Below are positions 6,488 to 53,083 of a stretch of 64,000 bases of DNA, one piece after another. Each line of letters begins with the position of its first letter. Position 1 is the stretch's first letter. Under the pieces are notes generated by a model. The model saw only the letters and a list, made by a program, of their open reading frames with translations, was not told where the DNA came from and ran no database searches. The DNA lies in assembly GCA_965205865.1 (NCBI GenBank), contig CBDBHR010000030.1, forward strand, positions 416,001 to 480,000, given 5' to 3'. Source of the DNA: a bacterium. Its GTDB lineage: Bacteria; SAR324; NAC60-12. The position numbers and the translations under genes are program-made.

Positions 6488-6686
6488 ATTCGTGCTATTT
6501 GTGCTTATGAGAAGATAAATCCGACTATCTCTCCGGTCGACTGACGAGGAATTGGGGTCAGGCCTGCGACTTTGGGAGTTTAAGTTTAAATTTCCGTTTG
6601 ATCTCTTCGACACGGTTTTGCAGATCAGGAGACTTTCTGATTTTTTGTCTCAGCTGATGGATTCTGGCACTGATCGTCGAATCATC

Positions 6687-7517
6687 TCAATTGAGCTTGT
6701 TTGCCAGCTCTCTGATTGTCGCGGACTTCAAGTTGAAAGCGATCATTCCAACCACGGCCAGCGCTTCACTGAACTTGCGGGACTGCCCCGCATTTTTTAA
6801 TTGTTCCTCCTCAATCCGATAAACCTCCGAAACCCGCTGAATAATCTTTTCTAAAGAAGGAGGCGCGTGAGGCTTCGTTTTCAGTTGCTCGAAAACAGAA
6901 CTCAGGAAATGATCTTCTCCGATTACTTCGGGATGAGTTGACCCTTTTTTAAAATTCACTTCGGAGGCGATTCCCCTTCTTTCATGAATATAAGTCGCAT
7001 AGAATTTCCTCGCCTCAGAACGATCTGAGGAAAAGAGAGACAATCCCAAGTCACAATGCAACCAATCCGGCTGCTTTCCCCCCAAATAAGCGGCATGGCT
7101 ACTCCAGGGAAATTCCGCCAATTCCTTGACGATTCCCGCTCGGGTCGGATTGAGGTGGATGTAACGTATTAAGGCAAGCAAATAGCGGTCTTGATCCACT
7201 AACAGAGCTTTGTAACGCCCTTGGAATAAGTGTCCGACTCGTTTTTGCCGTTTGTTGATCCAACGGGTGTAACGAAATGATACATTTTGCATAATCGGCG
7301 AAAGTGGCTGACTGCCGGTTTGGATGGCTAGATGCGCATGATTGTTCATCAAACAAAAGGCATGAATGCGATGATCAAAACGCGCATGACCCTCTGCAAG
7401 CAACTTGTAAAAATGATGATAATCCGTATGCTCGAAAAATAGGGCTTGTCCGCCATTGCCACGGAGCATGACATGATAAAGGGCGCCGGGGAAGTAAAGA
7501 CGAGGTTTGCGGGACAT
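6687..7517 (-). CDS. REP-associated tyrosine (Y1/HUH) transposase with a C-terminal DnaA-C-like HTH, prematurely terminated
   Basis: YHVMLRGN, FCLMNNHAHL, GHLFQGRYK and YIHLNP motifs; CGA>TGA at 6687-6689 compared with the copy at 15091-15584. Confidence 0.88.
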   Translation of the reverse strand: MSRKPRLYFPGALYHVMLRGNGGQALFFEHTDYHHFYKLLAEGHARFDHRIHAFCLMNNHAHLAIQTGSQPLSPIMQNVSFRYTRWINKRQKRVGHLFQGRYKALLVDQDRYLLALIRYIHLNPTRAGIVKELAEFPWSSHAAYLGGKQPDWLHCDLGLSLFSSDRSEARKFYATYIHERRGIASEVNFKKGSTHPEVIGEDHFLSSVFEQLKTKPHAPPSLEKIIQRVSEVYRIEEEQLKNAGQSRKFSEALAVVGMIAFNLKSATIRELANKLN

Positions 7518-7583
7518 TGGCAAAATCGGCTGAAGGGAGAAACTTAAAATTAAAAATCATAACTCCTGTTTCCCAAACTCGCA

Positions 7584-9540
7584 GTCACCGTAAAGAACTG
7601 ACTTATAGTGGTTTCCAGCCACCTTTCGTCATTCCTCCGGTACAGATCCGGACGTGCGCTGCTAACGCATCCGGCTCCTGCTTCGAGTCAGACGCTCAAA
7701 CGTTGATTCGGATACGGGTGGGTTGTCCTTACAGAAGGAATGTGTAGTTTGACCAGTACTTTGAAGCGTTCCCAGTTCATCCTCTTTGCTTTGTGACTCC
7801 TCCGTCTTAGTGATTTGAACCACGTCCGATGGATTTCCGTGCGAAAAGCATTCAAGGAACTCCGGTTGCCGGGGACTCCATAGTAGTTGTACAGACCGTT
7901 TAAAACAGACCTGAGCCATTTTCCTTGTTCATGCGCATTTTCATGACGTTTGCGTTTCGCTTCAAGTTTGATCTCTTTGAGCTTCTTTCGCAACCTTTTG
8001 GAAATGGTGAGACGGGTGAGCTTGAATTTTCCATCCTTTATCCGAGTGTCACAGACATGAGTGAATCCTGAAAAGTCGAAACTTTCCGGTTTTCCCAGAC
8101 CTTGTTTTTCCCGGTTATCGGCGGCAAATCGCCCGAACTCGATGAGGCGTGTTTTCTCTTCATGTAAAGTCAGTCCAAATTGAGAGAGGCGTTCTCTTAG
8201 TTGGCGATTAAATTTCTGGCCATCTTCAGAATATTGAAAACCCACGACGAAATCATCCGCATAGCGAATGATGTAAACTTCCCCCCGAGCTTCCCGCCTT
8301 CTCCATTGATTGACCCATAGATCTAAAACATAGTGCAGGTAGATATTTGAATAGATTGGAGAAACTACCGAACCTTGTGGTGTTCCGACCACCGTTTCAG
8401 ACCACTTCCCCTCTTCGATGACTCCGGCGCGCAACGTTTTCTCTACTAAACGCAGAATCCTTTTGTCGGAGATTCGATGCTCGATAAATTTCAGCATCCA
8501 ATCATGCTGAATTGTGTCGAAAAATCCTTGAATATCCGCATCTAAGATGTAGCTCACTTTCCGTTGGGTAATGGCCACATACAAAGCGTCTAAGGCTTGA
8601 TGTTGGCTTCGTCCGGGTCGGAACCCGTAACTAAACCCAAGGAAATCCTCCTCATAGATCGATTCCAACGTCCAAACAAGGGCTTGTTGTACGATCTTGT
8701 CTTCAAGTGCGGCTATTCCGATTGGCCTTTGACGGCCATCCGGTTTAGGAACCCACACTCGCAGAGAAGGGTGAGGACGATAACGTTCTTGGTGGATCCT
8801 CCCGTGCAGATCGTTAATCCGCTCCAGGAGATTTATGCCATACTCATTCCAGGTCTCCTCGTCCACTCCCGCCGCTGAGTTGCGATTGAGATCAAAGTAA
8901 GCTCTCCGCAGTAAGTCAGGGTTGATGTGATGAAAGAGATTGTTGAATTGAAGATGGGGGTTCCTCTTCGCCCTTTGGCGCACCCTGCTTAAACCGCTCT
9001 CTGATTTTACCGGCCTCTGAGTTCCGAACACAGGAGGGCAAGCAGAATTCCTCTCAGCCAAGTCCCTTTGCTCCACAGGCTCCGTTGATTTCCTTTGCAT
9101 TGTTACTCTCTACAAATGATCTCATTGTTCGCCGCTTCATCGCTACTACGAACTTGTCCGACTTCCTGAAGACGTAGATATCGGGGTTATTTATTAATTT
9201 TCCCGATCCGACTACCAATAGAATGTTGACAGTCGTCTTCAGGATCTCCCAGGTTCCGATCAAGAAACTTCCACACATGCACCGGGTCTTTGACTCCGCC
9301 AGGCTCAGCCGAGACTCACGCTAACGCCTTCGGTTGATATTGCCTTCCCCACCAGACCACAAGGTCAGCGCCTGAAACTATGATTTCGGAGCTCAATACC
9401 GAGCCTATGTTCTCCCCTGTCAACGCTTAGCGCCTATCCTTGCGAATAACCACTCATGACTCGGGGACTCGGCGGGTCGTTACTGCCTTACCGAGTAAGA
9501 GACTTTCACTCTCTATTTCTTGCCAGCTTTCCTGGCGCAC
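7584..9540 (-). mobile_element. Complete group II intron (about 1957 bp; bacterial IIB-type, class E-like)
   Basis: 5' GTGCG at 9540; domain V GAGCCGGATGCG...CACGTCCGGATC just after the ORF; 3' end ...GGTGAC at 7584. Confidence 0.92.
7688..9100 (-). CDS. ltrA: Group II intron reverse transcriptase/maturase without endonuclease domain
   Basis: PKPDGRQRPIGI, SYGFRPGRS, GTPQG and RYADD motifs. Confidence 0.95.
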   Translation of the reverse strand: MQRKSTEPVEQRDLAERNSACPPVFGTQRPVKSESGLSRVRQRAKRNPHLQFNNLFHHINPDLLRRAYFDLNRNSAAGVDEETWNEYGINLLERINDLHGRIHQERYRPHPSLRVWVPKPDGRQRPIGIAALEDKIVQQALVWTLESIYEEDFLGFSYGFRPGRSQHQALDALYVAITQRKVSYILDADIQGFFDTIQHDWMLKFIEHRISDKRILRLVEKTLRAGVIEEGKWSETVVGTPQGSVVSPIYSNIYLHYVLDLWVNQWRRREARGEVYIIRYADDFVVGFQYSEDGQKFNRQLRERLSQFGLTLHEEKTRLIEFGRFAADNREKQGLGKPESFDFSGFTHVCDTRIKDGKFKLTRLTISKRLRKKLKEIKLEAKRKRHENAHEQGKWLRSVLNGLYNYYGVPGNRSSLNAFRTEIHRTWFKSLRRRSHKAKRMNWERFKVLVKLHIPSVRTTHPYPNQRLSV

Positions 9541-9654
9541 AGCCTGACCCCGTACCGTACTCTGGGAGAGGACTTGACATCCTCCGGGGGATACGATAGA
9601 GATGGAGTGCTTTCTTTAGAAGAATTTTTAAAACAGTCTGATAAGGAGGACCGG

Positions 9655-10689
9655 ATGGCAAATGTAAGCATGGAAAAAGAGGAATTGATCGATGGCATGC
9701 CTCGGGATAAGCGGGGATACTGGCACCCTGAAGGAGGGACAGGTGCCCCCAGTCCTTTGTTTGCCTGGCCACCCAAGCCCCTCGCGGCTTTCAAATACCT
9801 GTTTGGCTTCCCGGGTTACCTGTTTCCGTGGAATATGATCTATTTTAGCATCGCCACGGTCACATGGCTCTACTTCCAGCCGGCCTTGTCCCGCTGTGTC
9901 ACATTCCAACTTGACTGGATCCTGGAGATGTTTGTCCGCAACCTCGTGCTGCTGGTCCTCATTTATAGTGCCTGGCACTACTGGCTCTGGTCGCGTAAGT
10001 CCCAAGGGCTCCAGTACAAATACAACGCCGAGTGGCTGGCAACGGGAAAGCGGAAGTTCCTCTGGGGGGACCAACTGCGCGACAACATCTTCTGGTGTTG
10101 TGTCAGTGCGGTTCCGATCTGGACGGCGTATGAAGTGCTGATGATGTGGGCCTACGCCAACGAGCTGCTGCCCTACATCGATCCGCGAGAACAGCCGGTC
10201 TACTTTATCGTGCTGCTGGTCTGTATGCCAATGATTCGAATCTTCCACTTATACTGGGTCCATCGTCTCTTGCACTGGCCTCCGCTCTTCAAGCGAGTGC
10301 ACTACCTCCATCATAAAAACATCAATGTCGGGCCCTGGTCCGGTGTGGCCATGCATCCGATTGAGCACCTGGTTGTCTTCAGCAGTGTTCTGATTCACTG
10401 GATCGTGCCCTCGCATCCCATCCACATGCTGATGAACGCCCAACACAACGCGCTCCCGCCGGCTCAGGGGCATTCCGGGTTCCAGCAGCTGGTTATCAAG
10501 GGAAACCTCCGGGTCCCCGGTGCCAGCAGCTATTTCCATCATCTGCATCACCGCTTCTTCGAGTGCAACTACGGGGAACCCATGATGCCGTTGGATCATT
10601 GGTTCGGGACCTATCACGATGGCTCTCCCGAGGCCCACGAAGCGATCCTGAAGCAGCAAGCCCAGAAAAACATGAGGTTCAGTGCCTAG
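9655..10689 (+). CDS. Sterol desaturase/fatty acid hydroxylase family protein
   Basis: His boxes HRLLH, HYLHH, HHLHH; NYG...DHWFGT; AGGAGG RBS before ATG 9655. Confidence 0.88.
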   Translation: MANVSMEKEELIDGMPRDKRGYWHPEGGTGAPSPLFAWPPKPLAAFKYLFGFPGYLFPWNMIYFSIATVTWLYFQPALSRCVTFQLDWILEMFVRNLVLLVLIYSAWHYWLWSRKSQGLQYKYNAEWLATGKRKFLWGDQLRDNIFWCCVSAVPIWTAYEVLMMWAYANELLPYIDPREQPVYFIVLLVCMPMIRIFHLYWVHRLLHWPPLFKRVHYLHHKNINVGPWSGVAMHPIEHLVVFSSVLIHWIVPSHPIHMLMNAQHNALPPAQGHSGFQQLVIKGNLRVPGASSYFHHLHHRFFECNYGEPMMPLDHWFGTYHDGSPEAHEAILKQQAQKNMRFSA

Positions 10690-14231: not shown

Positions 14232-14297
14232 GGGGTCAGGCCTTTGTTGTTGTGTTATTCAAGTATTTAAATAAGCCAATAACAAAAGCCTGACCCC
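14232..14297. repeat. 66-bp hairpin (REPIN-like) made of two RAYT-type IR ends
   Basis: GGGGTCAGGCCTTTGTTGTTG versus the reverse complement of CAATAACAAAAGCCTGACCCC, 19/21; inner arms also complementary. Confidence 0.88.
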
Positions 14298-14303
14298 ATT
14301 TCT

Positions 14304-15090: not shown

Positions 15091-15584
15091 GGGGTCAGGC
15101 CTGCGACTTTGGGAGTTTAAGTTTAAATTTCCCGTTTGATCTCTTCGACACGGTTTTGCAGATCAGGAGACTTTCTGATTTTTTGTCTCAGCTGATGGAT
15201 TCTGGCACTGATCGTCGAATCATCTCGATTGAGCTTGTTTGCCAGCTCTCTGATTGTCGCGGACTTCAAGTTGAAAGCGATCATTCCAACCACGGCCAGC
15301 GCTTCACTGAACTTGCGGGACTGCCCCGCATTTTTTAATTGTTCCTCCTCAATCCGATAAACCTCCGAAACCCGCTGAATAATCTTTTCTAAAGAAGGAG
15401 GCGCGTGAGGCTTCGTTTTCAGTTGCTCGAAAACAGAACTCAGGAAATGATCTTCTCCGATTACTTCGGGATGAGTTGACCCTTTTTTAAAATTCACTTC
15501 GGAGGCGATTCCCCTTCTTTCATGAATATAAGTCGCATAGAATTTCCTCGCCTCAGAACGATCTGAGGAAAAGAGAGACAATCC
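15091..15584 (-). mobile_element. Second, partial RAYT element copy (IR plus intact 3' half of the gene)
   Basis: Near-identical to 6554-7046. Confidence 0.93.
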
Positions 15585-35183: not shown

Positions 35184-35320
35184 ACGAAAAAGGTTAACAT
35201 TGAATCTTAATCAGGGCAAATATTTTTTTTGGAATCGATGCGCATAAGAAAGCCTTTCACATAACCCTTCGGACTTTTTGATTGCGAGTTGGCAGTTAAT
35301 CGATACAGGGCCAATTGATC
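35184..35320 (+). pseudogene. IS110-family 5' remnant
   Basis: Degenerate frame containing GIDAHKK after a GAGGAG RBS. Confidence 0.5.
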
Positions 35321-35322
35321 AG

Positions 35323-35625
35323 AATCGGGAATCGGGGAAATCGGGGTCAGAATCGGGGTCAGGCTTGCAAGTTTGCAAAAATGGGGTATTTTTTTAAATT
35401 TTAACCTTTTCAATTTGCCAAGATGTCTCTGAAACTGCGTTTGTAGTACTCTGGTACGCTTTATTATGTGATACTTCGAGGCAATGGGGGCAACGTATTT
35501 TTTCGATGACAGCAACTCTCGACGCTTTTATCAGTCTTCAATTGGAAATCCGCAACAATCCGGGAAGTGGCAAATGCTCTCAAGCGAGATGATGCTACTT
35601 TCAGTCAGAGCGCGCGATTCGAGAT
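35323..35625 (+). mobile_element. Degenerate, internally deleted RAYT element with a stuttered IR
   Basis: IR GGGGTCAGGCTTGCAAGTTTG at 35355; ATG 35423 MSLKLRL*YSGTLYYVILRGNGG fused to FNWKSATIREVANALKRDD. Confidence 0.8.
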
Positions 35626-46860: not shown

Positions 46861-46886
46861 TTCAATTCGCCGTCATGGAATCGGGA

Positions 46887-46978
46887 GGCTGAGTTTCGCG
46901 GCACATCTCCGGTATCTTAGTGCTGCTTCCGTTAGGACCTGACACGGTTCGAAACTTTCAATTGCGCGAAACCCGGCC
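46887..46978 (-). ncRNA. ffs: Small SRP (4.5S) RNA
   Basis: GTCAGGTCC-TAAC-GGAAGCAGC core within a long hairpin; tRNA-Ser-ffs-dnaX context. Confidence 0.9.
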
Positions 46979-47016: not shown

Positions 47017-47104
47017 TGGCGGAAAGGGAGGGATTCGAACCCTCGGTACGCAGACGTACACACGATTTCCAGTCGTGCACCTTCGGCCTCTCGGTCACCT
47101 TTCC
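47017..47104 (-). tRNA. tRNA-Ser(GGA)
   Basis: Cloverleaf with anticodon arm CACGA-CTGGAAA-TCGTG, long variable arm, GGTTCGAATCC and encoded CCA. Confidence 0.97.
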
Positions 47105-52215: not shown

Positions 52216-52250
52216 ACACACTCGAAAATTCTCTTCATCTTGCTTTTATG

Positions 52251-52412
52251 AACTGATGTTACGCGTGCGGATTTTACAGTTATGCGTCTCATCGAGTTGT
52301 CATTCCTGGCGAAGACCAGGAATCCAGAAATACAGGGCTGGCGATCCACGGAAATGGGGTCAGAAATAGGGTCAAAATAGAAATAGGGTCAGGCTTGCAT
52401 ATTTGTATTAAG
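52251..52412. repeat. Duplicated left end of the GIY-YIG element followed by a stuttered RAYT-type IR
   Basis: AACTGATGTTACGCG...REP (52299-52325), then AAATGGGGTCAG AAATAGGGTCA AAATAG AAATAGGGTCAGGCTTGC. Confidence 0.85.
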
Positions 52413-53083
52413 AACTGATGTTACGCGCACGGATTTTGCAGTTATGCGTCTCATCGAGTTGTCATTCCTGGCGAAGACCAGGAATCCACAGGGCTGGCGA
52501 TTCAGGTGACTAAAACGTTTCATATAAATCTTTCCATTGAGGATTATTTTTCTCAATGAGTTCGATTTTCCAAGCTCGTTTCCATTTCTTGATCAGGGTG
52601 ACTAAAACGTTTCATATAAATCTTTCCATTGAGGATTATTTTTCTCAATGAGTTCGATTTTCCAAGCTCGTTTCCATTTCTTGAGTTGTTTTTCTCTCCG
52701 GAGAACAGCTGTTACCTCTGAAGCGGTCTCATAGTATACCAATTGACGTACTTGGTATTTACTGGTAAATCCTTCTATGAGATTTTTTTTATGTTCATAA
52801 ACTCTTTTAGGAGGATCATTTGTCACTCCATAATATAGAGTACCATTTCTTTTACTTGCCAAGATATAAACGTAGTAGGTTTTCATGATGGCGACTCCTG
52901 GATTCCTGGTCTTCGCCAGGAATGACACACTTGTGGGGAAGCGTATTCATGGAAACCGCTGAATGCAAAAAATATACGCGTAACCTTCATGAAAACTTAT
53001 GCTTTCACCCCGGAGGATGAAGAAAAATAACAAACCGTATAGTTTCAGTAGGTTAGATAGTTTTCTTCACGGTAACGTCAGTT
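52413..53083 (-). mobile_element. REP-flanked GIY-YIG element with terminal IRs
   Basis: Ends AACTGATGTTAC/GTAACGTCAGTT; flanks ATTAAG/ATTAAA; inverted REPs at 52461-52487 and 52900-52926. Confidence 0.75.
52602..52886 (-). CDS. Small GIY-YIG nuclease (94 aa)
   Basis: YYVYILASKRNGTLYYGVT...R...H...REKQLKKWKRAWK. Confidence 0.9.
   Translation of the reverse strand: MKTYYVYILASKRNGTLYYGVTNDPPKRVYEHKKNLIEGFTSKYQVRQLVYYETASEVTAVLRREKQLKKWKRAWKIELIEKNNPQWKDLYETF

Follow-up and report, generated by a model that had tools for sequence, protein, structure and literature searches.

An intact group II intron inside the terminal inverted repeat of a Y1 transposon of a SAR324 bacterium, with a homing site probably fixed in a multicopy repeat

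Statements drawn from the literature refer here to those parts of the cited articles that were available. RmInt1 of Sinorhizobium meliloti is described as an endonuclease-less group II intron which homes into the multicopy insertion sequence (IS) ISRm2011-2 via single-stranded DNA (ssDNA) of the lagging strand (PMC1802570, PMC8914252), and it has been discussed as a control on the dispersal of its host element (PMC1802570, PMC8914252, PMC4238363). Introns of class IIC use multicopy, structured and repetitive DNA such as terminators and attC sites (PMC4424553); they insert after a stem-loop with a shortened exon-binding site 1 (EBS1; PMC3753933). In Thermosynechococcus elongatus, the introns TeI3/TeI4 occur in tens of copies, together with nested introns and with derivatives lacking the open reading frame (ORF), which need the reverse transcriptase (RT) in trans (Mohr et al. 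2010, PMC2882425). The small IIB-like classes E and F have their EBS1 in domain Id and a covarying pair of EBS2 and intron-binding site 2 (IBS2); class IIF has a long structured domain VI (D6; Nagy et al. 2013, PMC3753933). Insertion sequences targeting repetitive extragenic palindromic (REP) elements have been compiled (Tobes and Pareja 2006, PMC1525189), and the sole group II intron in that table, from P. putida KT2440, was REP-associated in just two of nine copies (PMC1525189). A review from 2015 sets out three options for bacterial group II introns, which can target a specific homing site, a terminator or an attC site (PMC4424553). In the literature covered, which was incomplete and without supplements, we found no intron reported as homing into the end repeats of REP-associated tyrosine transposases (RAYTs), of REP elements or of IS200-type elements. 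Here we present the analysis of a group II intron which splits an inverted repeat (IR) at the end of a Y1 (HUH) transposon. It is located in a window of 64,000 nt, the whole stretch of DNA that was analysed (contig CBDBHR010000030.1, positions 416,001 to 480,000, of assembly GCA_965205865.1; lineage SAR324, NAC60-12). The locus is very probably one intact copy of a recently active group of endonuclease-less group II introns, whose homing site is fixed in a multicopy repeat.

The intron consists of 1957 nt on the minus strand (9540 to 7584) and interrupts the upstream 24-nt IR of the Y1 gene. Both boundaries can be read directly from the sequence: the intron starts with GUGCGCCAGG... at 9540, i.e. 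with 5' GUGCGCC including the conserved GUGYG start (GUGCG at 9540-9536), and finishes with ...UUUACGGUGAC at 7584 (3' ...CGGUGAC). The 5' exon GGGGTCAGGCT (9541-9551, minus strand) is the outer core of the upstream IR; on the minus strand it is directly preceded by GTACG, and its last six bases (9546-9541) are IBS1. The 3' exon TGCGAGTTTGGGA (7571-7583, minus strand) is the subfamily-specific inner part of the same IR. It is followed, in minus-strand order, by a 60-nt spacer, an ORF of 278 aa (7523-6687), 110 nt and the uninterrupted downstream IR GGGGTCAGGCCTGCGACTTTGGGA (6554-6577, plus strand). The joined halves of the upstream IR are identical to the downstream one at 22 of 24 positions. 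A first-pass annotation of the window had placed the intron exactly inside the IR, and these boundaries agree with it.

The core of domain I matches the Rfam family RF02005 (group-II-D1D4-6; 9284-9506, minus strand) with 168.2 bits (gathering score 49); with a length of about 265 nt, domain I is short. An ORF of 470 aa (7688-9100, minus strand), in which the YADD motif is present, encodes the RT/maturase; it scores 342.7 bits with TIGR04416 (cut-off 300) and 127 bits with Pfam RVT_1. The latter is the sole Pfam domain matched, and an endonuclease domain was not found in this ORF. Domains V (D5) and VI (7584-7679, minus strand) were tentatively assigned by means of an RF00029 match, which stops exactly at 7584 and reaches 31 bits, under the cut-off of 40, and by a fold with a hairpin resembling D5 and a long D6, whose bulged A is located 8 nt (7 intervening) from the 3' end. 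The best match among RTs of solved structure is the IIC RT 7uim (E = 1.4e-43), followed by the IIB intron T.el4h (1.3e-37) and LtrA (7.7e-37). By similarity to PDB entries, a IIC RT is therefore the closest solved one, by a small margin.

The window's own genome, that of a sponge-associated bacterium (4.74 Mb, 30 contigs), was searched with the intron by means of blastn, which gave 44 intron loci. Four of these are full-length; each comprises 1957 nt and an intact 470-aa ORF with YADD, and their mutual differences amount to 8-24 nt. A shared internal deletion, which joins intron nt ~571 to ~1836 and eliminates nearly the whole RT gene, occurs in 25 loci, among them 12 simple ORF-less elements of 692 nt; the same junction was also seen in contigs of four public runs. 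The remaining loci are truncated or broken by other insertions, and many copies are truncated, nested or fragmentary. As a side observation, at least six copies contain ORF-less group II introns of other families (about 835-906 nt), nested at about intron nt 396-406 as twintrons. They are of two types, starting with GUGAGCAGCC and with GUGCGCACUG/GUGCGCUGGG, and are located at C30:1206304-1207210, C28:263299-264205, C29:627307-628213, C30:788637-789544, C28:326616-327517 and C30:654281-655115 (contig and positions).

In order to characterize the insertion site, 41 5' junctions were collected; one tandem intron-intron junction was left out, and the other 40 were scored against GGGGTCAGGCY. No mismatch was found in 23 cases, one in eight, two in six, three in one and four in two, i.e. 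37 of 40 junctions deviate at two positions at most. The last six bases of the 5' exon read exactly CAGGCY in 35 of the 40. The 35 non-tandem 3' exons begin with T (30 cases) or C (five cases) at position +1; further on, they represent several unrelated families, and 14 of them belong to the TTTGAT family. Most insertions sit in gene-less copies of the repeat, which are MITE-like (MITE, a transposable element of the miniature inverted-repeat type), and not beside a transposase gene. As the same junction recurs genome-wide, the one in the window is not due to chance.

The 10-mer GGGTCAGGCY occurs 164 times in the genome, whereas about 15 occurrences are expected from the base composition; the intron follows in 27 cases. 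Of 136 unoccupied core copies, 126 have a T at +1, and GAAA-N at −16 to −12 is present in unoccupied copies as well; upstream of −16, the sequence of the 5' exon is not conserved. Since unoccupied copies share GAAA-N and the T at +1, these features belong to the repeat and are not assignable to recognition by the intron. A tblastn search with the Y1 protein resulted in 43 high-scoring segment pairs, which represent at least six subfamilies with 34-67% amino acid identity to the window's protein. Where both ends of a subfamily are visible, its inverted repeats are composed of the common outer core and an inner part of its own; examples of the latter are TGAAAGTTTGGAAAA, TRCAAGTTTGCAAA, TTTGATTAAAT, TCGTTAATTCGTTA and TGCATATTGGTAT. 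Many further core copies are gene-less pairs of inverted ends; the 3' exon of locus L028 is such a pair, too. The position of the intron is constant, namely between the common core and the subfamily-specific part. Judged from these sequences, the target is the terminal IR of a Y1 (HUH, IS200/RAYT-like) superfamily and of its gene-less derivatives, with GGGGTCAGGCY as the outer core and an inner part that starts with T. The multicopy nature of the target, which the first-pass annotation had put forward, was confirmed; the intron family was found in that repeat in this genome and in two related ones.

EBS1 was assigned to GGUCUG (intron nt 183-188; 9353-9358, minus strand), which the Rfam alignment assigns to the loop at the tip of a hairpin in domain I. 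This loop (GGUCUGG at 9358-9352) varies in the consensus of the Rfam family, in contrast to that of the following hairpin, which is conserved. GGUCUG pairs with CAGGCY via five Watson-Crick pairs and one wobble if the base at −1 is C, and via four and two if it is U; as a G, the first EBS1 base can pair with either, which explains why C and T both occur at −1. The first-pass annotation had proposed this loop as EBS1, and its position is fixed by the Rfam alignment and by homologues; for the 7-bp pairing proposed at the same time, the comparative data fix 6 bp, the seventh (G-U) being optional. Folding of domain I had been suggested as a check of EBS1. The minimum-free-energy fold fails to reproduce the Rfam structure in the surroundings of EBS1; due to this disagreement, the comparative structure was used instead, and it placed the loop. 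Two further candidates were rejected. AGCCUGG (~9297-9303), as an alternative EBS1, gives a better Watson-Crick match with the exon, but is the 3' strand of a conserved Rfam helix, in which it pairs with an internal UCAGGC; CCCC beside GAGUC, a candidate for EBS2, is already base-paired inside domain I according to Rfam.

The pairing was assessed in 117 loci fetched with the RT, 37 from genomes and 80 from metagenomes. The hairpin was located via the conserved sequences on both sides of it; for the 5' splice site, a GUGYG-like motif at a distance of 178-190 nt upstream was the sole criterion. The EBS1 loop pairs with the 5' exon at five or more of six positions in 22 of 25 homologous loci, several of which are copies from one genome and not all independent; according to our own arithmetic, the chance of such a pairing is about 0.03 per random pair of 6-mers. 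The three misses are L115 with four of six positions and L016 and L151 with three of six; the latter two become six of six if the junction is shifted by one base. About 20 further homologues start with GAAAGCG, GAUAGCG or GAGCGCC and have, by eye and unscored, the predicted IBS1 directly before this start. Such non-GUGYG starts were noted in L006, L013, L031, L100-L112, L123-L132 and others. In G008, a genome from another genus of the same family (82% RT identity), the loop reads UGGCUG and the exons end with CAGCCA, CAACCA and CAGCCA. Compared to the window, EBS1 and IBS1 differ by two compensatory changes, and the G008 genome carries a repeat of the same form; thus, EBS1 covaries with the target between genera. 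Within the window's genome, EBS1 variants do not clearly match the base at −1: copies with A as the first EBS1 base are found at T (seven) and C (three), those with GGUCUGG at T (14) and C (nine). Two further single-base variants with G at the first position are located one at T and one at C.

Of 41 genomes searched for the intron DNA, three contain it, namely the window's own, G001 from the same genus, and G008; the remaining 38, in part incomplete, gave no match. The first-pass annotation had asked whether homologous introns sit in unrelated targets, and the outcome depends on the distance. If the RT identity is 82-86%, the introns occupy homologous repeats, in agreement with the proposed specificity; at 47-65% RT identity, the targets are mostly other sequences, which differ along with EBS1, in line with what a changed EBS1 predicts. 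In G001, the 5' exons read GGGGGTCTGGCT and a Y1 fragment lies downstream; a further G001 copy has as its 3' exon a gene-less inverted pair, which finishes in the core. Many distant 5' exons keep the form of an A-rich stretch, GGGG, A or T, C and variable bases. In Psychrobium (G041), the 12-mer AAGGGACAGGCA occurs 14 times, compared to zero for the control, and the target of the related intron is a palindrome between an A-run and a T-run. Inside such palindromes, the G041 loci L080, L082, L085 and L087 consist of 5' intron fragments of ~85 nt, with one truncation point in four places. In Psychrobium and Endozoicomonas, the intron target motifs of the respective genome do not flank its Y1 homologues (36-42% identity). 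Downstream sequence of 400 nt or more was available for 54 loci, and in five of these a Y1-like ORF follows the intron on the same strand. That of L033 scores 31.5 bits with Pfam, above the cut-off of 23; the gene of L109 (21.4 bits, frameshifted) and that of L015 (19.7 bits) are under this cut-off, and the ORFs of L009 and L022 were found solely by a hidden Markov model (HMM) built in this analysis. Outside this bacterial family, the link between intron and Y1 gene is recurrent, concerns a minority of loci and is mostly weak.

A second intron family, with the loop GGUCAG and the 5' start GUAUGCGG, is represented by fragments, 5' parts only, at C30:272498-272770 and C25:64080-64188(-). Their 5' exons end with ...GCCTGACC and ...TTTGACC; both junctions follow ...TGACC, which is the opposite strand of the same core. 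An orthologous empty site was not found in G001, whose homology to the window begins only at 9606, the neighbouring cation-efflux gene being without a match.

The copies of the intron are 97-100% identical and yet reside in the ends of at least six divergent Y1 subfamilies, which favours repeated homing over co-copying with one element. In addition, the ORF-less form, which stems from a single deletion event, lies in many different repeats. In contigs of the public runs X15 and X1, a ~96% copy of the window's Y1 element leads from 7583 straight into the outer core and then into a different flank; such an uninterrupted copy is what a precise insertion of the intron would predict. Based on the established biology of group II introns, the RT of the four intact copies would bind the spliced intron RNA, and the resulting ribonucleoprotein (RNP) would reverse-splice into the core while the latter is in single-stranded or unwound form. 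As this RT lacks an endonuclease, a nascent strand at a replication fork would then prime the synthesis of cDNA. The ORF-less copies, whose shared junction and different sites are evident, would have spread to many repeats by using the RT in trans.

Several findings weigh against repeated homing by a recently active intron. A promoter-like site was not found upstream of the intron. The contigs of three metatranscriptome runs and of one other public run were compared over 7300-9800; intron sequence and the ORF-less joint are present, and the joint 7583-9541, which ligated exons or an empty site would have, was found in none of these four runs, which leave 9568-9800 uncovered. Note that RNA libraries can hold DNA; consequently, these contigs say nothing on transcription or splicing. 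For the gene-less elements, a DNA hairpin is predicted in which the core and its inverted copy are paired; this would hide IBS1 unless the DNA is unwound. Moreover, the pairing with DNA carries one wobble (−1 = C) or two (−1 = T). A comparison by eye of homologue loops with exon positions −7 to −12 and +1, which was no systematic covariation test, gave no consistent partner for EBS2 or EBS3; thus, the GGGG conserved at −11 to −8 of occupied sites has no such partner to explain it. This conservation could simply be that of the repeat, as unoccupied sites have the GGGG, too. The GC skew, determined in 50-kb bins of the eight largest contigs, was weak, noisy and irregular in sign, and gave no leading- or lagging-strand assignment by which to judge the strand bias expected for fork-primed insertion. 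Finally, passive spread, along with the host element or through segmental duplication, could account for some copies: those at C28:358767 and C29:409363 share an identical 40-nt 5' flank, which indicates duplication, and three copies in G001 are tandem duplicates.

The alternative with the best prospects, unlikely as it is, takes the family as no longer mobile and this copy as the fossil of a past burst. The many truncated, nested or fragmentary copies are in line with it, as are the spliced junction missing from the contigs of the public runs and the promoter-like site that was not found; a relic is hard to reconcile, however, with four copies which have intact ORFs and differ at 8-24 of 1957 nt, and with an intact 5' end, an intact EBS1, and a predicted D5 and D6 with branch A that seem intact as well. 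It is quite improbable that the intron entered once or a few times and was then multiplied by Y1- or MITE-like transposition without any homing. Since the outer core remains joined to the 5' side of the intron, an element still transposing would carry the intron along, and the identical 40-nt flanks as well as the three tandem copies of G001 could be explained in this way. Such passive multiplication does not account for introns of 97-100% identity in at least six subfamilies whose transposases are just 34-67% identical, nor for full-length and ORF-less forms at the same position in different subfamilies; moreover, EBS1 not only complements the site but also covaries with it between genera, and the other strand of the same core carries fragments of a second intron family. 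Least credible of all is a IIC-like mode directed by structure, in which the RNP recognises the hairpin or cruciform of the IR and the 6-nt pairing merely fine-tunes the site: the IIC RT as best solved match, the short domain I (about 265 nt) for which EBS2 was not found, the gene-less elements predicted to fold as DNA hairpins and the palindromic target of Psychrobium would suit it, but the intron inserts within the first arm and not after a stem-loop, the partner repeat is about 1 kb off beside full-length Y1 genes, none of the 17 homologous loci with a placeable 3' end showed an inverted copy of the 5' exon within 400 nt, and the 6-nt IBS1 is nearly invariant (exact in 35 of 40).

Beyond homing into a multicopy repeat, a wider interpretation is conceivable, though doubtful: there might be a clade of endonuclease-less introns adapted to the ends of HUH (Y1) transposons, and both would need the same transient ssDNA at replication forks. 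The recurring form of distant 5' exons is consistent with it, as this form would be a conserved transposon end tracked by EBS1 changes; the same holds for related introns that recur just upstream of Y1 genes in other phyla. If true, the intron lands between the cleavage core of the transposase and its subfamily-specific binding repeats, and would either inhibit the transposon or ride with it between genomes.

The host element encodes an intact Y1 (HUH) transposase of 278 aa (6687-7523, minus strand), which matches Pfam Y1_Tnp with 49.7 bits (cut-off 23) and in whose translation the HAH and RY motifs are visible. With NF047646, the model of REP-associated tyrosine transposases, it scores 68 bits (E = 7.7e-19), under the cut-off of 80. 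The first-pass annotation had spoken of homing into RAYT IRs. The IR as a target is correct, whereas the label RAYT is approximate, given this score and multicopy, IS-like genes. With RAYTs and their REP/REPIN repeats the host element shares short inverted repeats which flank the gene and also occur as gene-less pairs. RAYT genes are usually single-copy and vertically inherited; in contrast, the host element is multicopy and diversified like an insertion sequence, and scores under the cut-off of the RAYT model. With IS200/IS605 elements it has the Y1 HUH transposase in common; it differs by true 24-nt terminal inverted repeats, whereas that family is without terminal inverted repeats and has subterminal hairpins instead (PMC7923331). 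Due to its IS-like diversification in many copies and its true terminal IRs, we call the host element RAYT-like and place it in neither family. Due to the insertion, 1957 bp lie between the outer 11 nt of this end and its remainder, and the Y1 ORF is intact; the intron may immobilise its host element, as the first-pass annotation had supposed. The last ~50 residues of the transposase (window 6687-6830) look by eye like a helix-turn-helix of the DnaA domain-IV type, and no Pfam match with E < 0.001 was found for this C-terminus. It may be a specificity module which co-varies with the inner repeat; the inner parts of the IRs resemble two direct 7-mers (TGNNAGT TTGNNAA) that vary by subfamily.

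The window contains further copies of the end repeat. GGGTCAGGCTTGC occurs exactly at 35356-35368 and 52386-52398, so that the uninterrupted alleles noted near 35355 and 52385 in the first-pass annotation are indeed there; with up to two mismatches, five matches were counted in the window, while shuffled sequences gave a mean of 1.11 and none of 100 shuffles reached five. The copy at 35355-35378 (plus strand) is an uninterrupted IR of another subfamily, which has TGCAAGTTTGCAAA as its inner part and a degenerate Y1 reading frame downstream of it; the one at 52385-52408 (plus strand) is an uninterrupted solo IR of a third subfamily with the inner part TGCATATTTGTATT. Upstream of the full core, partial tandem iterations of the outer core (GAAAT, one base, GGGTCA) are found in both regions (35320-35368 and 52350-52398), and similar doublets precede some intron copies, e.g. 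C26:286295 and C29:718096. The solo end repeat at 52386 is flanked by a direct repeat of ~78 nt (52247-52330 and 52412-52490). The IR at 15091-15114 (plus strand) belongs to a second, truncated copy of the same Y1 subfamily as the host element; its residual gene at about 15228-15584 (C30:431228-431584) corresponds to residues 160-278 and is 100% identical. At 14241-14303, two inverted cores about 40 nt apart form an unoccupied gene-less, MITE-like element without assigned strand, for which an ssDNA hairpin of -12.3 kcal/mol (z = -4.9) was predicted, the folded stretch beginning 5 nt inside the element. Elsewhere in the genome, five full-length Y1 genes of one subfamily and three intron copies lie within 24 kb (C29:722173-745924), which looks like a hot spot or a graveyard of Y1 elements. 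Ordinary genes on the minus strand of the window are those for a signal recognition particle (SRP) RNA (46885-46977, 43.9 bits) and a long-arm tRNA (47020-47104, 56 bits).

The locus is a clear natural case of one genetic parasite that specialises on another. A single specificity offers about 160 safe, non-coding landing places, which explains about 40 copies in a genome of 4.7 Mb. EBS1 and IBS1 covary naturally between genera, and a second intron family, represented by fragments, converges on this core, too. Given the 6-nt rule and the constant position of the EBS1 loop, targets can be predicted across the Rfam D1D4-6 clade. The finding also raises the question whether an intron in a transposon end silences this transposon or travels along.

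Compared to the small classes E and F, as far as these are described, the intron is similar with respect to a ribozyme of about 540-690 nt without the ORF, a long structured D6 and an EBS1 in domain Id; it differs in that EBS2 was not found by eye. With IIC introns it has in common the lack of an endonuclease, a small ribozyme, a multicopy repetitive target and the closest solved RT, whereas the sequence-specific IBS1 of 6 nt and the insertion inside a repeat arm set it apart. Insertion sequences that target REP elements, in the portrayal cited, likewise land safely in a short extragenic repeat that is present in many copies, but are DNA transposons. The reported features of TeI3/TeI4, i.e. 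tens of copies, ORF-less derivatives and nested introns, are all found again here. The intron families of T. elongatus spread by diversifying their target specificity; in contrast, the intron studied here exploits, with one specificity, a target which is itself multicopy. The nearest known case is RmInt1 in ISRm2011-2, which, in the accounts available, resembles our intron in an RT without endonuclease domain and in a homing site located in a multicopy mobile element. The site of RmInt1 lies inside one IS and not at a terminal repeat, and RmInt1 uses EBS2, too; for the intron described here, EBS2 was not found, and the site is the terminal-repeat core of at least six Y1 subfamilies and their gene-less derivatives. 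Formally, this is a homing site as well; the twist is that it is the common end-core of a diversified family of transposons and MITEs.

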